Assembly (NCBI GenBank): GCA_964564865.1
Contig: CAZMDA010000001.1
Location: forward strand, 35,939-99,938
Direction: 5' to 3'
Source of the DNA: an uncultured Bordetella sp.
GTDB lineage: Bacteria > Pseudomonadota > Gammaproteobacteria > Burkholderiales > SG8-39
Length of the DNA: 64,000 nucleotides
Shown: positions 1,773-13,572 of the stretch, one piece after another
How positions within the stretch are numbered: the first letter of the stretch is position 1
Layout of the letters: every line of letters begins with the position of its first letter
Made by a program: the position numbers and the translations under genes
The notes under the pieces: generated by a model
Databases searched by the model: none
What the model was told of the DNA's origin: nothing
What the model saw: the letters and a program-made list of their open reading frames with translations, nothing else

Positions 1773-3296
1773 TTACATGGTCGCGCCCAGCACCCACGGC
1801 GCGAACTCGTCCTCGCCGAAGCCGAGCAGCTCGGACTTGGAGCGCTTGCCCGAGGCGGTCTCCAGCACGAGCCGGAAGATGCGCTCGCCCGCCTGCGCCA
1901 CGGTTTCCTCGCCGTCGACGATGGTGCCGCAGTTGACGTCCATGTCCTCTTCCATGTGCCGGTAGAGCGCGGTATTGGTCGCGAGCTTGAGCGAGGGCAC
2001 CGGCTTGCAGCCGTAGACCGAGCCGCGTCCGGTGGTGAAGCACACCACGTTGGCGCCGCCCGCGACATGCCCGGTGACCGACACCGGGTCGTAGCCGGGG
2101 GTGTCCATGAACACGAAGCCCCGCGCGGTGACCGCCTCGGCGAACTCGTAGACCTCCACCAGGTTGCTGGTACCGCCCTTGGCCGCGGCGCCGAGGGATT
2201 TCTCCAGGATCGTGGTGAGGCCGCCCGCCTTGTTGCCGGGCGAGGGGTTGTTGTTCATCTCCATCCGGTTGCGGGCCGTGTAGTCCTCCCACCAGCGGAT
2301 GCGCGCCAGCAGCTTCTCGCCCACCTCCCGCGTCACCGCGCGGCGCGTGAGCAGGTGCTCGGCGCCGTAGATCTCGGGGGTCTCGGACAGGATCGCGGTG
2401 CCGCCGTGGCGCACCAGCAGGTCCGCGGCCGCGCCCAGCGCCGGGTTGGCGCTGATCCCGGAATAGCCGTCGGAGCCGCCGCATTCCAGGCCCAGGGTCA
2501 GGTGGCTCGCGGGGACCGGCTGGCGCGAGACGCGGTTGGCCTCCGGCAGCAGCTCCTTCACGCGCGCGATGCCGTCGCGCACCGACTTGGTCGTGCCGCC
2601 CTTCTCCTGGATGGTGAAGGCCTGCAGCTTGTCGGAGGATTTCAGCCCGGCGGTGTCCATCCAGACCCGGATCTGGTTCGCCTCGCAGCCCAGGCCGATG
2701 CCCAGCACCGAGAAGAAATTGGGGTGGCGCGCGTAGCCGGTCATGGTCCGCCGCAGCAGCGTCATGCCCTCGCCCTCAGAGGCCATGCCGCAGCCGGTCT
2801 TGTGGGTGAGCGCCACCACGCCGTCCACGTTCGGGAAGTCGCCGAGGTTGTTGCGGAAGTGGTCGGCCACCATGCGCGCGACGGTGGCCGAGCAGTTGAC
2901 GCTGGTGAGGATGCCAATGTAGTTGCGCGTCGCGACGCGGCCGTCGGAGCGGACGATGCCCTGGAAGGTCGCCGCCGGCTGGACGTGGTTCACCGGCTTG
3001 ACGTCGGTGCAGAAGGCGTAGTCGCGCACGAAGTCGCCCATGGCGAGGTTCTGCACGTGGACATGCTCGCCCGGGCGGATGTCGCGCGTGGCGAAGCCGA
3101 TGATCTGGCTGTACCGGCGCACCGGCTGGCCCTGCTTCACCTCGCGTACCGCCACCTTGTGGCCGGCCGGGATCTTGCCCGCGACCGCCAGGTTGCCCTC
3201 CTTCACCAGCGTCGTGCCGGGGGCGAGCGCGACCCGGGCGATGACGACGTCGTCGTCAGGGCTGAGTCGGATGGTGAGGTCGGCGGCCTGCAGCAT
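1773..3296 (-). CDS. UxaA-family sugar-acid dehydratase (altronate/galactarate dehydratase family)
   Basis: 507 aa. N-terminal SAF-like segment (LSPDDDVVIARVALAPGTTL) and long UxaA/GarD-like body (TSVNCSATV, GLECGGSDGYSGISANP). AGGGGGA RBS upstream. Confidence 0.85.
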   Translation of the reverse strand: MLQAADLTIRLSPDDDVVIARVALAPGTTLVKEGNLAVAGKIPAGHKVAVREVKQGQPVRRYSQIIGFATRDIRPGEHVHVQNLAMGDFVRDYAFCTDVKPVNHVQPAATFQGIVRSDGRVATRNYIGILTSVNCSATVARMVADHFRNNLGDFPNVDGVVALTHKTGCGMASEGEGMTLLRRTMTGYARHPNFFSVLGIGLGCEANQIRVWMDTAGLKSSDKLQAFTIQEKGGTTKSVRDGIARVKELLPEANRVSRQPVPASHLTLGLECGGSDGYSGISANPALGAAADLLVRHGGTAILSETPEIYGAEHLLTRRAVTREVGEKLLARIRWWEDYTARNRMEMNNNPSPGNKAGGLTTILEKSLGAAAKGGTSNLVEVYEFAEAVTARGFVFMDTPGYDPVSVTGHVAGGANVVCFTTGRGSVYGCKPVPSLKLATNTALYRHMEEDMDVNCGTIVDGEETVAQAGERIFRLVLETASGKRSKSELLGFGEDEFAPWVLGATM

Positions 3297-3334
3297 GGAA
3301 GTCCCCCTATGGCGGCAATGTTACCGCCCCGGCG

Positions 3335-4324
3335 CTAGCCGCGCGAGAGCAGTGCCGCCTGCCGGATCGCCTCCAGCATGCTCTGCGCGTCGGCCTTGCC
3401 GGTGCCGGCGATGTCGAAGGCGGTGCCATGGTCCACCGAGGTGCGCACGATGGGCAGCCCGGCGGTGATGTTGACGCCGTGCTCCATGCCCAGAGCCTTC
3501 ACCGGGCCGTGGCCCTGGTCGTGGTACATCGCCACCACCAGGTCGTAGTCGCCGCGCGCGGCGACGTAGAACAGCGAGTCCGCAGGCAGCGGGCCGTCCA
3601 CCTTCCAGCCGAGGGCGCGTGCCTGCGCGATCGCGGGCGCGATCTTCGCTTCCTCCTCGCCGCGGCCGAACAGGCCGCCTTCGCCGGCGTGGGGATTGAT
3701 GCCGCAGACGCCGATGCGGGGTTCCGCGATGCCGGCGCGGCGCACGATGTCGCGGCCGCGCGCGATGGTGCGGGAAACCAGCGCCGCGTCGATGCGCGCG
3801 ATGGCGTCCAGCAGGCCCATGTGCGCGGTGACGTGGATCACGCGCAGCTTGGGCGAGAACAGCGTGAGCGACACTTCCTTCGTGCCGGTCATGGCGGCCA
3901 GCATCTCCGTGTGACCGGGATACTTGTGGCCGGCGGCATTGATGGCCTCCTTGCTGATGGGCGCGGTGCAGACCGCGTCCAGCTCGCCGGCGAGGGTCAG
4001 CTTCACGGCGCGCTCGATGTAGCGGTAGGAGGCCTCGCCGGCCACCGCCGAGGTCTGGCTGAAAGGCAGGTCTTCCGGCACCAGGCCAAGGTCGATGCAG
4101 TCCACCGTCCCCGGCGTGAACTTCGCTTCGCCGGGCGCGCCGATGCGCGCCACCTTCAGCCGGGCGCCCACGATCTTCCCGGCCCTCTCCAGCCGCTTCG
4201 CGTCGCCGATCACCAGCGGCCGCGCGCTCTCGTAGGCCTGCGGGTCGGCCAGCGCCTTCATCACCACCTCCGGGCCGACCCCCGAGGGATCGCCCATGGT
4301 GATGCCGATGCGTGGCAGCTTCAC
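3335..4324 (-). CDS. PdxA-family NAD-dependent hydroxyacid(-phosphate) dehydrogenase
   Basis: 329 aa. MKLPRIGITMGDPSGVGPEV, YPGHTE, GINPHAGE, AMYHDQGH and SVDHGTAFDIAG are the PdxA/PdxA2 signature blocks. Confidence 0.85.
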   Translation of the reverse strand: MKLPRIGITMGDPSGVGPEVVMKALADPQAYESARPLVIGDAKRLERAGKIVGARLKVARIGAPGEAKFTPGTVDCIDLGLVPEDLPFSQTSAVAGEASYRYIERAVKLTLAGELDAVCTAPISKEAINAAGHKYPGHTEMLAAMTGTKEVSLTLFSPKLRVIHVTAHMGLLDAIARIDAALVSRTIARGRDIVRRAGIAEPRIGVCGINPHAGEGGLFGRGEEEAKIAPAIAQARALGWKVDGPLPADSLFYVAARGDYDLVVAMYHDQGHGPVKALGMEHGVNITAGLPIVRTSVDHGTAFDIAGTGKADAQSMLEAIRQAALLSRG

Positions 4325-4337
4325 GGCACGGCGCGGA

Positions 4338-11933: not shown

Positions 11934-11939
11934 TATAAT
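11934..11939 (+). promoter_or_regulatory. -10 box TATAAT upstream of the SDR/FAH pair
   Basis: GGCTATAATCCGCGCC lies 48 nt upstream of ATG 11987. The same GGCTATAAT-N-CGCGCC string recurs upstream of tkt. Confidence 0.4.
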
Positions 11940-11986
11940 CCGCGCCCTTCGCGGTCGATCAACAGCAACGGGAGGCGGTGCGGCAG

Positions 11987-12727
11987 ATGGCGGGCAGACT
12001 CGCAGGCAAGACGGCCTTCATCACCGCGGCCGGGCAGGGCATCGGACGCGGCGCGGCGCTCGCCTTCGCGCGCGAGGGCGCGCAGGTGTGGGCCACCGAC
12101 GTCAACGCCAAGGCATTGGCTGACCTGGAAGGCCGCGACGGCATCCGCACCCGGGTGCTCGACGTCCTCGACGAGGCCGCGATCGCGCAGGCGGCCGCGG
12201 AGGCCGGCCCGGTGGACGTGCTGTTCAACTGCGCCGGCTACGTCGCCCACGGCAGCATCCTCGACTGCAGCAACAAGGACTGGGACTTCAGCTTCAACCT
12301 GAACGTGCGCTCCATGTTCTGGGTGACCAAGGCCTTCCTGCCCGGGATGCTGAAGAGGGGCGGCGGCTCGATCATCAACATGTCCTCCATCGCCTCGAGC
12401 GTGAAGGGCCTGCCCAACCGCTTCGCCTACGGCGCCACCAAGGCCGCGGTGGTCGGGCTCACCAAGTCCATCGCCGCCGACTACGTCAAGCAGGGCATCC
12501 GCTGCAACTGCATCGGCCCCGGCACGGTGGACACGCCGTCCCTCGGCGAGCGCATCGCCGCCTTCGCCGACCCGGTGCAGGCGAAGAAGGATTTCATCGC
12601 CCGCCAGCCCATGGGGCGGCTGGGCACCGTCGAGGACATCACCGGGCTGCTGGTGTTCCTCGCCTCGGACGAGTCGCTGTTCGCGACCGGCAACATGTAT
12701 TCGATCGACGGAGGCATGACCATATGA
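11987..12727 (+). CDS. SDR resembling 2-keto-3-deoxy-sugar-acid 4-dehydrogenases (DHRS6/BDH2-like)
   Basis: ATG at 11987 (GTG at 11978 is too close to the GGGAGG RBS). [20 protein letters not shown] motifs. The specific family assignment is from memory. Confidence 0.8.
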
Positions 12728-13572
12728 AGCTGTGCCGCTATGGCAAGAACGGGTTCGAGAAGCCGGGCATGATCGACGGCGAGGGCAGGCTGCGGGACCT
12801 GTCCAAGGTGGTGGAGAACATCGGGCCGAACGAGATCTCCCCGCGCGGGCTGAAGATGCTCGCCAAGCTCAAGCCCGAATCGCTGCCGCTGGTGGCGAAC
12901 AGCCCGCGCCTGGGCGTGCCGTACGTCGGCATCGGCAAGTTCGTCGCCATCGGCCTGAACTATTCCGATCACGCCAGGGAGGCCGGCATGGCGATCCCCT
13001 CCGAGCCGATCGTGTTCATGAAGGCCACCACCTGCATCAGTGGCCCGAACGACGACATCATCCAGCCGAGGAATTCCACCAAGCTCGACTGGGAGGCGGA
13101 ACTGGGCGTGGTGATCGGCACCAGGGCGCAGTACGTGAGCGAAAAGGACGCGCTCTCGCACGTCGCCGGGTACTGCTGCATCAACGACGTCTCCGAGCGC
13201 GCCTTTCAGCTCGCCACCGGCCAGTGGGACAAGGGCAAGGGCTTCGACACCGCCGGTCCGATCGGTCCCTGGCTGGTGACCGCCGACGAGGTGGGCGACC
13301 CGCAGAACCTGGACATGTGGCTGGACGTGAACGGCAAGCGCATGCAGACCGGCAACACCCGCACCATGATCTTCAGCGTGGCGCAGATCGTCTCGCACGT
13401 CAGCCAGTACATGACGCTGATGCCGGGCGACGTCATCACCACCGGCACGCCCCCGGGCGTGGGCATGGGCGTGAAGCCCAACCCGGTGTGGCTCAAGCCC
13501 GGCGACGTGGTGTCCTTCGGCATCCACGGCCTGGGCGAGCAGCGCACGAAAGTGGTGGCCTGGAAGGGCTGA
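12724..13572 (+). CDS. fumarylacetoacetate hydrolase (FAH) family hydrolase, candidate 2,4-diketo-3-deoxy-acid hydrolase
   Basis: 282 aa. ATGA overlap with the upstream [22 protein letters not shown] and [13 protein letters not shown] are FAH-family blocks. Confidence 0.85.

Follow-up and report, generated by a model that had tools for sequence, protein, structure and literature searches.

What would a bacterium do with a single locus that carries two sugar-acid dehydratases of different families, two short-chain dehydrogenases/reductases (SDRs), a hydrolase of the FAH (fumarylacetoacetate hydrolase) family and, embedded among them, a member of the PdxA family? This question is raised by a stretch of DNA from an uncultured Bordetella sp. 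(contig CAZMDA010000001.1, positions 35,939 to 99,938), which is 64 kb long and is called the window as a whole. The window has about 68% G+C and its raw lists of open reading frames (ORFs) are crowded. The gene set was defined by ORF calling and translation, then by Pfam and NCBIfam scans, and the result was unambiguous. The gene array that an original prediction had described for this DNA is present in full and reads as follows.

10392-11762, minus strand: substrate-binding protein (SBP) of CUT1 type (Pfam SBP_bac_8)
9442-10305, minus strand: ATP-binding cassette (ABC) permease 1 (Pfam BPD_transp_1)
8603-9445, minus strand: ABC permease 2 (Pfam BPD_transp_1)
7530-8591, minus strand: ABC ATPase of MalK/UgpC type (Pfam ABC_tran, OB_MalK and TOBE_2; NCBIfam NF008653, 502 bits)
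6823-7527, minus strand: GntR/FCD regulator of the FadR subfamily (Pfam GntR and FCD)
6125-6826, minus strand: SDR1, 233 amino acids (aa) (Pfam and NCBIfam scans)
4338-6122, minus strand: IlvD/EDD dehydratase, 594 aa (Pfam ILVD_EDD_N and ILV_EDD_C)
3335-4324, minus strand: PdxA-family protein, 329 aa (Pfam PdxA)
1773-3296, minus strand: UxaA/GarD-family dehydratase, 507 aa (Pfam SAF, GD_AH_second and GD_AH_C)
11978-12727, plus strand, divergent: SDR2 (Pfam and NCBIfam scans)
12724-13572, plus strand, divergent: FAH-family protein (Pfam and NCBIfam scans)

Three start/stop overlaps had been proposed, and all of them can be read from the sequence: GTGA at 9442-9445, where the TGA stop of permease 1 overlaps the GTG start of permease 2, GTGA at 6823-6826, and ATGA at 12724-12727, where the ATG start of the FAH gene overlaps the SDR2 stop. 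The other minus-strand junctions measure 2-38 nt (13 nt from the IlvD stop to the PdxA start), with the exception of 86 nt 3' of the SBP gene. A promoter and terminator scan gave nothing above background and no convincing internal terminator. Together with the short junctions and overlaps, this makes a single operon plausible. Furthermore, at least 12 independent contigs, genomic and metagenomic, of related uncultured Betaproteobacteria show the order SDR-IlvD-PdxA accompanied by UxaA, a short DUF1537 kinase or both, indicating that the arrangement is no chance juxtaposition.

A probable Route III locus with both branches

We consider it probable that the locus serves the inducible breakdown of sugar acids, or of sugars whose oxidation takes place elsewhere, by the non-phosphorylative Route III ('Watanabe') pathway, and that it includes both stereochemical branches of this pathway. 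The components of Route III were found by homology, namely two acid-sugar dehydratases, SDR 4-dehydrogenases and an FAH hydrolase with its His/Glu pair, and of the nine functions in catalysis and transport, eight match a characterised Route III pathway. The exception is the PdxA-type gene. The original prediction of a non-phosphorylative route for a sugar or sugar acid is supported, and its remark that such a route leaves the PdxA-type gene unexplained was borne out.

The sequence comparisons described below show which genes are present, which residues they keep, their synteny and purifying selection; from these we infer substrates, order of steps, regulation and a role for PdxA. The CUT1 ABC importer would take up the substrate. 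The IlvD/EDD enzyme would then dehydrate (2R,3S) aldonates (L-arabinonate, D-xylonate, D-galactonate, D-gluconate or D-fuconate), and the UxaA-family enzyme would dehydrate (2S,3R) acids (D-arabinonate, L-fuconate, L-galactonate or D-idonate). The resulting 2-keto-3-deoxy acids would be oxidised at C4 by two enzymes of opposite stereospecificity. One is SDR1, of the type acting on L-2-keto-3-deoxypentonate and L-2-keto-3-deoxyrhamnonate (L-KDP/L-KDR), and the other is SDR2, of the type acting on L-2-keto-3-deoxyfuconate and D-2-keto-3-deoxypentonate (L-KDF/D-KDP). A single FAH hydrolase would split the common 2,4-diketo-3-deoxy acid into pyruvate and glycolate, lactate or glycerate. In Herbaspirillum huttiense, C785_RS13675 (D-KDP/L-KDF) and C785_RS20555 (L-KDP/L-KDR) likewise feed one hydrolase, giving pyruvate and glycolate or lactate. 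Two dehydratases, two stereo-opposed 4-dehydrogenases and a shared hydrolase would resolve the puzzle of the second dehydratase. The UxaA-family protein, which had been put down as unexplained, falls in the D-arabinonate/D-idonate subfamily, and the UxaA-family D-arabinonate dehydratase C785_RS13685 is a characterised component of Route III (PMC6336799).

The closest known system is that of H. huttiense IAM 15032, whose Route III clusters use the same enzyme families for the same steps and also include ABC transporter and regulator genes (PMC6336799). However, its dehydratase and dehydrogenase types are spread over several clusters, whereas in the window all of them stand with one hydrolase in one divergent locus. 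The window also differs in that it lacks an aldose dehydrogenase, a lactonase and the Route II genes (KDP dehydratase and α-ketoglutarate semialdehyde (KGSA) dehydrogenase). The embedded PdxA-family gene is a feature of the window, and PdxA is not mentioned in the H. huttiense paper (PMC6336799). It had been allowed that a characterised orthologous cluster might account for every enzyme of the locus; a characterised system does so for all but PdxA, although not as one cluster. A literature search for PdxA together with UxaA/IlvD clusters found no description of such a cluster. New relative to the literature found are the presence of both branches in one locus, the lack of sugar-oxidising steps and a kinase-less PdxA2 conserved in the operon.

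Which molecule enters the cell? Pfam and NCBIfam scans detected no lactonase or aldose dehydrogenase at the locus. Among the relatives (designated by L numbers), L086 has the same six enzymes with a tripartite ATP-independent periplasmic (TRAP) transporter, a carboxylate carrier, instead of the ABC system, and in L009 a TRAP DctQM pair is inserted. The missing sugar-oxidising enzymes, the UxuR/ExuR/LldR-like regulator and the TRAP genes of sister loci suggest that sugar acids, not free sugars, would enter.

If this is correct, the locus is a compact and self-contained Route III in which a single pair of operons, sharing one hydrolase, deals with sugar acids of both enantiomeric series. It would also be of use for annotation, as metagenome-assembled genomes (MAGs) of abundant soil Burkholderiales now label these genes 'dihydroxy-acid dehydratase', 'altronate dehydratase', 'FabG' and 'PdxA'.

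Two dehydratases of predicted opposite stereochemistry

The IlvD/EDD protein aligns over 568 residues with PuDHT of Paralcaligenes ureilyticus (PDB 8EJ0), at 74% identity and with a score of 984 bits; against the Rhizobium L-arabinonate dehydratase the score is 810 bits. It has the full N- and C-terminal domains and the C-terminal His of the sugar-acid-specific IlvD/EDD dehydratases (SADHT). Its C-terminus reads ...PRDNH, and the final His aligns with PuDHT His575, which is typical of the sugar-acid-specific members (PMC9314677). PuDHT prefers D-gluconate, followed in order by D-galactonate, D-xylonate, L-arabinonate, L-threonate and D-glycerate; it does not use dihydroxyisovalerate, and the (2R,3S) configuration is strictly required (PMC10107998, PMC9314677). 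The window protein is expected from this likeness to be a [2Fe-2S] sugar-acid dehydratase for (2R,3S) aldonates. We did not adopt the narrower label of an L-arabinonate-specific enzyme, because the score against the NCBIfam L-arabinonate dehydratase NF009559 is 847 bits and misses the curated cut-off of 882. Being close to the industrially studied PuDHT, the enzyme may be of use for cell-free biomass conversion.

The UxaA-family protein shares 64% identity with Paracoccus denitrificans PDEN_RS24515. The latter, the protein of PD1222, is reported to be a D-idonate dehydratase that is 67% identical to the characterised D-arabinonate dehydratase C785_RS13685 (PMC6336799). The SAF and GD_AH domains and the four conserved cysteines of the UxaA/GarD superfamily are all present. 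The cysteines of VNCSA, KTGCG, GLGCE and LECGGSDG have aligned counterparts in E. coli UxaA and GarD, and the four superfamily cysteines are Cys134/173/208/276 in C785_RS13685 (PMC6336799). Identity is 33% to E. coli UxaA and 39% to GarD. Judged by these alignments, the protein is a member of the D-arabinonate/D-idonate dehydratase subfamily, and neither UxaA nor GarD of E. coli is its ortholog. It is expected to act on (2S,3R) sugar acids, a stereochemical rule derived from the listed substrates of the subfamily.

Two other labels for this protein were rejected. A galactarate dehydratase was suggested by the GarL/GarR-like genes of sister loci, but the score against TIGR03248 is 390 bits against a cut-off of 730.85 and the identity to GarD is the 39% given above. 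A D-altronate dehydratase of the E. coli UxaA type is opposed by the 33% identity and by the absence of uxaC from the locus. An Azospirillum homologue with 66% identity does adjoin uxaC, so the window protein may still have altronate activity; homologues with 64-66% identity occur in altronate, idonate and other gene contexts. The E. coli garD-garPLRK and uxaCA systems have the dehydratase superfamily and the four cysteines in common with the window, but the window has no aldolase, isomerase or 2-keto-3-deoxygluconate (KDG) kinase. Some sister loci do contain genes for a GarL-like HpcH aldolase and a GarR-like reductase, as in the E. coli gar system.

Two putative 4-dehydrogenases and one hydrolase

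The divergent SDR and FAH genes had been read as a 4-dehydrogenase and hydrolase module, and our comparisons agree. SDR2 matches the H. huttiense L-KDF/D-KDP 4-dehydrogenase (PDB 8XWK/8Y11) with 299 bits and 60% identity. Eight of the nine pocket residues tested by mutagenesis are kept (Val89, Arg148, Thr183, Leu189, Arg192, Phe211, Arg214 and Gln215), including the carboxylate-binding Arg148, Arg192 and Arg214. The sole pocket difference is a Met in the place of Trp252, and the W252M mutant of the reference L-KDF dehydrogenase is still active (PMC11199699). SDR2 is therefore predicted to be a 2-keto-3-deoxy-acid 4-dehydrogenase of the L-KDF/D-KDP stereo-type. The FAH-family protein scores 354 bits against L-2,4-diketo-3-deoxyrhamnonate hydrolase (PDB 8GSR) and 466 bits against NCBIfam NF053535, missing the cut-off of 500. 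Its SDHAREAG segment has the His-x-x-Glu spacing of C785_RS20550 (His83/Glu86). These features match a 2,4-diketo-3-deoxy-acid hydrolase, which would release pyruvate and glycolate, lactate or glycerate.

Over 189 aa, SDR1 shares 64% identity with PDB 6D9Y, and it keeps AAAKT and the C-terminal GGRATY. The 6D9Y protein is a putative L-KDR 4-dehydrogenase of opposite C4 stereoselectivity, and it is 51-54% identical to characterised L-KDR dehydrogenases (PMC11199699). In cultured bacteria, homologues of SDR1 adjoin enolase-type dehydratases or FAH genes. SDR1 thus probably acts not as an aldose 1-dehydrogenase but as a second 2-keto-3-deoxy-acid 4-dehydrogenase, with the L-KDP/L-KDR stereo-type.

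This departs from the original prediction, which had placed the in-operon SDR in the upper half of the route. In that model a deoxyhexose or pentose is imported, SDR1 as aldose 1-dehydrogenase and IlvD form the upper half, SDR2 and FAH form the lower half, and UxaA and PdxA serve a separate substrate or branch. In its favour, CUT1 transporters often carry neutral sugars, and SDR1 does have sub-threshold NCBIfam matches to glucose 1-dehydrogenase and aldose dehydrogenase. We nevertheless regard it as unlikely. The nearest solved relative of SDR1 is 6D9Y, whose proposed acid-binding basic residues are kept; the locus has no lactonase; relatives pair the same enzymes with TRAP carboxylate transporters; and UxaA-family dehydratases are established in Route III, where they are natural partners of the SDR2 type.

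We also observed that SDR1 is much more divergent than its neighbour. Compared with L098, L086, L089, L088 and L008, SDR1 has 67-73% aa identity and a ratio of nonsynonymous to synonymous substitution rates (dN/dS) of 0.27-0.43, and the neighbouring IlvD in the same loci has 84-94% identity and a dN/dS of 0.05-0.20. This divergence between sister loci suggests relaxed or diversifying selection, or gene replacement.

The PdxA gene and the missing kinase

The PdxA-family protein is the part of the locus that Route III leaves without a task. Its bit scores are 472 against PDB 4JQP (a PdxA2-like protein of B. phymatum), 308 against Salmonella PdxA2, 300 against D-threonate-4-phosphate dehydrogenase and 204 against E. 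coli PdxA. TIGR00557 is matched with 361 bits, above its cut-off of 290, and the NCBIfam equivalog NF002891 with 329 bits, below its cut-off of 583. By this profile the protein is a predicted NAD-dependent dehydrogenase (decarboxylating) of the PdxA2 type, acting on 4-phospho-C4-acids. The housekeeping PdxA of pyridoxal phosphate (PLP) biosynthesis was rejected as an identity, since the gene lies in the context IlvD-PdxA-UxaA and not surA-pdxA-rsmA as in E. coli, and its score against the E. coli protein is far below that against 4JQP. Such PdxA genes call for caution before they are counted as vitamin B6 biosynthesis in metabolic reconstructions.

The window protein and 11 sister sequences keep all catalytic positions, that is, the Zn, substrate and Asp residues. 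In E. coli numbering these are His166/His211/His266 as Zn ligands, His136/Thr137/Lys274/Asn283/Arg292 as substrate residues, and Asp247/Asp267; the Lys, Asn and Arg of E. coli PdxA hold the phosphate. Furthermore, every residue that is invariant in 54 kinase-linked PdxA sequences is kept in the window protein. The dN/dS of PdxA against the kinase-less locus L098 is 0.12, comparable with 0.07 for UxaA and 0.05 for IlvD. A reading as a decaying relic was rejected in view of the intact catalytic residues and this purifying selection between two kinase-less loci, and the kept residues and the selection together indicate that the PdxA gene is functional.

We then surveyed one genome per species with the window protein and clustered the neighbouring ORFs. 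Among PdxA relatives with at most 67% identity, a DUF1537 kinase nearly always precedes PdxA, and a KdgT-type permease and a DeoR regulator are frequent; the kinase is present in 54 of these more distant loci. A DUF1537 kinase with PdxA2 is the known D-threonate/D-erythronate module, according to NCBIfam and PDB entry names. The PdxA protein of the window is of the same type as in these modules (Salmonella PdxA2, PDB 2HI1; PDB 6E85) and shares 63-67% identity with the kinase-linked proteins of, among others, Paraburkholderia and Roseomonas. Unlike these modules, the window has no kinase, KdgT-type permease or DeoR regulator, and PdxA is packed between IlvD/EDD and UxaA.

The order SDR1-IlvD-PdxA was found only in the closest PdxA relatives (at least 69% identity), all of them uncultured Betaproteobacteria/Burkholderiales. 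Within this clade PdxA is constant. A short DUF1537 kinase lies directly 5' of PdxA, after IlvD where the contig extends, in L006, L088, L097, L099 and L100, and it is absent from the window, L008, L009, L086, L089, L098, L101 and L104. UxaA is absent solely in L006 and L097, both of which contain the kinase. No DUF1537 kinase homologue was detected in the 64 kb window. PdxA was probably inherited from an ancestral order of SDR, IlvD, short DUF1537 kinase and PdxA, with the kinase lost in the window. Its substrate would most likely still be a beta-hydroxy acid that is phosphorylated or carries a similar anionic group, and the kinase would be encoded at a different locus. The gene offers a clean case either for a new substrate in the PdxA family or for dependence on a distant kinase. 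A comparison of the PdxA sequences for substitutions that follow kinase loss found none; the lineage-specific changes, Met→Leu153, Thr→Ala167 and Thr→Ser250, occur in kinase-containing sister loci as well.

Could PdxA instead be an integral step of the non-phosphorylative route, decarboxylating an unphosphorylated intermediate with an anionic tail, and not a stray tetronate-phosphate dehydrogenase? We hold this to be improbable. Its concrete form is an aldarate branch, in which UxaA would make a 5-keto-4-deoxy-aldarate, PdxA would oxidise C3 and decarboxylate to 5-hydroxy-2,4-dioxopentanoate, and FAH would release pyruvate and glycolate, so that UxaA replaces the kinase as supplier of the PdxA substrate. 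By our reasoning, 5-keto-4-deoxy-aldarate shares the C1-C4 skeleton and a similar anionic tail with 4-phospho-threonate and 4-phospho-erythronate. In the clade PdxA always occurs with the kinase, UxaA or both, and the only two loci that lack UxaA (L006 and L097) have the kinase. The anion-binding Lys, Asn and Arg of PdxA are kept, and selection persists without the kinase. TRAP and tripartite tricarboxylate transporter (TTT) carboxylate systems and GarL/GarR-like genes lie near in relatives, and the UxaA-family protein, at 39% identity, is somewhat nearer to GarD than to E. coli UxaA, at 33%. The proposal is nonetheless wholly inferential, and its co-occurrence argument comes from about 13 related, non-independent loci. 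The stereochemistry is also unfavourable. The GarD product of galactarate or glucarate is L-threo and PdxA-type enzymes oxidise a D-configured C3, so that by our reasoning the fit would be limited to rare acids, for example D-idarate or L-glucarate. In addition, no PdxA residue change correlates with kinase loss, and the characterised members of the UxaA subfamily use monocarboxylic aldonates. Of the readings that depart from a two-branched Route III, we give this one a small chance; if it were true, the PdxA family would gain a new reaction, and aldarates would have a new pathway to pyruvate and glycolate.

Least probable of all is a four-carbon island, in which IlvD acting on L-threonate and UxaA on D-threonate would yield 4-hydroxy-2-oxobutanoate, the SDRs and FAH would convert it via formylpyruvate to pyruvate and formate, and a kinase with PdxA would turn D-threonate or D-erythronate into dihydroxyacetone phosphate (DHAP): PuDHT does dehydrate L-threonate with a kcat of 8 s-1 (PMC10107998), the PdxA2/DUF1537 pair is the known tetronate module, and IlvD-like genes lie near kinase-PdxA pairs in the unrelated taxa L031, L038, L039, L041 and L054, but PuDHT favours C5/C6 acids 4- to 24-fold in kcat/KM (PMC10107998), the substrate of the SDR2 type is bound as a furanosyl hemiketal that needs at least five carbons (PMC11199699), and stereo-opposed 4-dehydrogenases would be pointless on a substrate with no C4 stereocentre.

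Several points weigh against Route III with both branches, which remains our preferred explanation. IlvD (847 against 882 bits) and FAH (466 against 500 bits) fall slightly under the NCBIfam equivalog cut-offs. The assignment of SDR1 depends on two steps of homology. The SBP has no characterised close relative, and given the usual cargo of CUT1 systems the imported molecule could be a sugar that is oxidised by enzymes encoded elsewhere. The absence of a DUF1537 kinase from the 64 kb also counts here. Finally, PdxA is always kept beside SDR1-IlvD while the kinase and UxaA vary, which suggests a functional tie that Route III leaves unexplained.

The short DUF1537 genes of the sister loci have features of their own. 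Those of L006 and L088 have in common an internal deletion of about 40 residues in the nucleotide-binding domain, and the L097 kinase is a called gene of 331 aa. A reading of the L006 and L088 genes as pseudogenes was found to be unsupported, given the shared deletion and the called L097 gene. Neither has a canonical start codon ahead of ADDLTGAAD. In L006 (about 5070-5160) and L088 (about 8950-9120) the N-terminal RVLILADDLTGAAD motif lies in frame directly 3' of a stop codon, with no ATG, GTG or TTG before it. These two genes either use a non-canonical start or are very recent pseudogenes.

Dehydratase, kinase and PdxA genes are also associated outside this clade. On the Fusobacterium plasmid pSB021A (L085 6598-11026), a SAF-less UxaA-family large subunit, a DUF1537 kinase, a KdgT-type permease and PdxA are contiguous. 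Bacillus piscicola (L068 2623-10990) has the same four genes, with the UxaA-family gene about 2.5 kb upstream of the others. The SAF-less large subunits of these two loci have 385-388 aa. The association of dehydratase, kinase and PdxA is thus found in distant phyla too.

Importer, regulator and repeat elements

CUT1 systems usually transport neutral sugars, oligosaccharides or polyols. For the SBP of the window, a PDB search gave no close solved homologue or informative ligand match (best E-value 3e-9). SBP orthologues with 73-75% identity were found in L096 and L097, where permeases, ATPase and an IlvD/EDD dehydratase again follow. In L096 (2898-16195; Burkholderiales MAG JAXMFJ010000007.1) the orthologous SBP-ABC-IlvD unit is accompanied by UxaA, an enolase-superfamily protein, a Zn-dependent alcohol dehydrogenase and a TRAP transporter, and it has neither PdxA nor SDR1. 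This composition indicates that the transporter-IlvD pair moves as a module independent of PdxA.

Three repeat elements were located within the locus.

11835-11855: perfect palindrome TTGGTCA-N7-TGACCAA in the divergent promoter region (inverted repeat I2)
10325-10386: densely nested, GC-rich hairpins that fill the 86 nt separating the SBP gene from permease 1 (inverted repeats)
6035-6089: 21-nt in-frame tandem repeat of 2.6 copies at the 5' end of the IlvD/EDD gene (TRF score 75)

The best NCBIfam matches of the regulator are UxuR, ExuR and LldR, each below cut-off, and by this measure it resembles these sensors of sugar acids and hydroxy acids most closely. It has the winged helix-turn-helix and FCD domains of a repressor of the GntR/FadR subfamily. 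The palindrome at 11835-11855 is the sole match in the window when up to 2 mismatches are allowed, with a chance expectation of 0.03, and a search for the motif in the L097 intergenic region did not find it. The palindrome is a candidate operator for the GntR/FCD regulator, which would probably bind there, between the divergent operons, as a repressor with an acid intermediate as effector.

The hairpins at 10325-10386 consist of inverted repeats of 11-14 nt with 92-100% complementarity. They may form an mRNA-stabilising or attenuating element that sets the ratio of SBP to permease expression. No Rfam family reached threshold across the whole window.

The tandem repeat at 6035-6089 encodes LRSQPKG-LRSTPTG-LRSTQ and adds about 14 residues over orthologues, which have one repeat copy and 576-580 aa, compared with 594 aa in the window. 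The IlvD/EDD architecture and the C-terminal His are common to PuDHT and the window protein, whereas the 14-residue N-terminal expansion belongs to the window protein only.

Flanking genes and additions in sister loci

Directly downstream of UxaA on the minus strand lie genes for a conserved 214-aa protein with no Pfam match (1105-1749) and then for a DUF4189 protein (725-1102). Synteny of the 214-aa gene extends to L001, L002 and L086, L088 and L089 lack the gene, and its absence from the latter two places it probably outside the pathway. On the side of the FAH gene, a minus-strand gene for a protein with two cyclic-nucleotide-binding domains (13576-14466) is followed by a second ABC system, also on the minus strand (14531-17281). 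This system consists of a permease, an ATPase and an SBP, and we saw no link between it and the sugar-acid locus.

Some sister loci carry further catabolic genes. L010 (1872-9221), L086 (2334-4122) and L088 (196-3785) add an HpcH/HpaI aldolase, a 2-hydroxyacid dehydrogenase and a beta-hydroxyacid dehydrogenase, and the additions also include Amidohydro_2 proteins and a GMC oxidoreductase. An aldolase outlet, Route I-like or GarL/GarR-like, may therefore exist in relatives alongside the hydrolase outlet.

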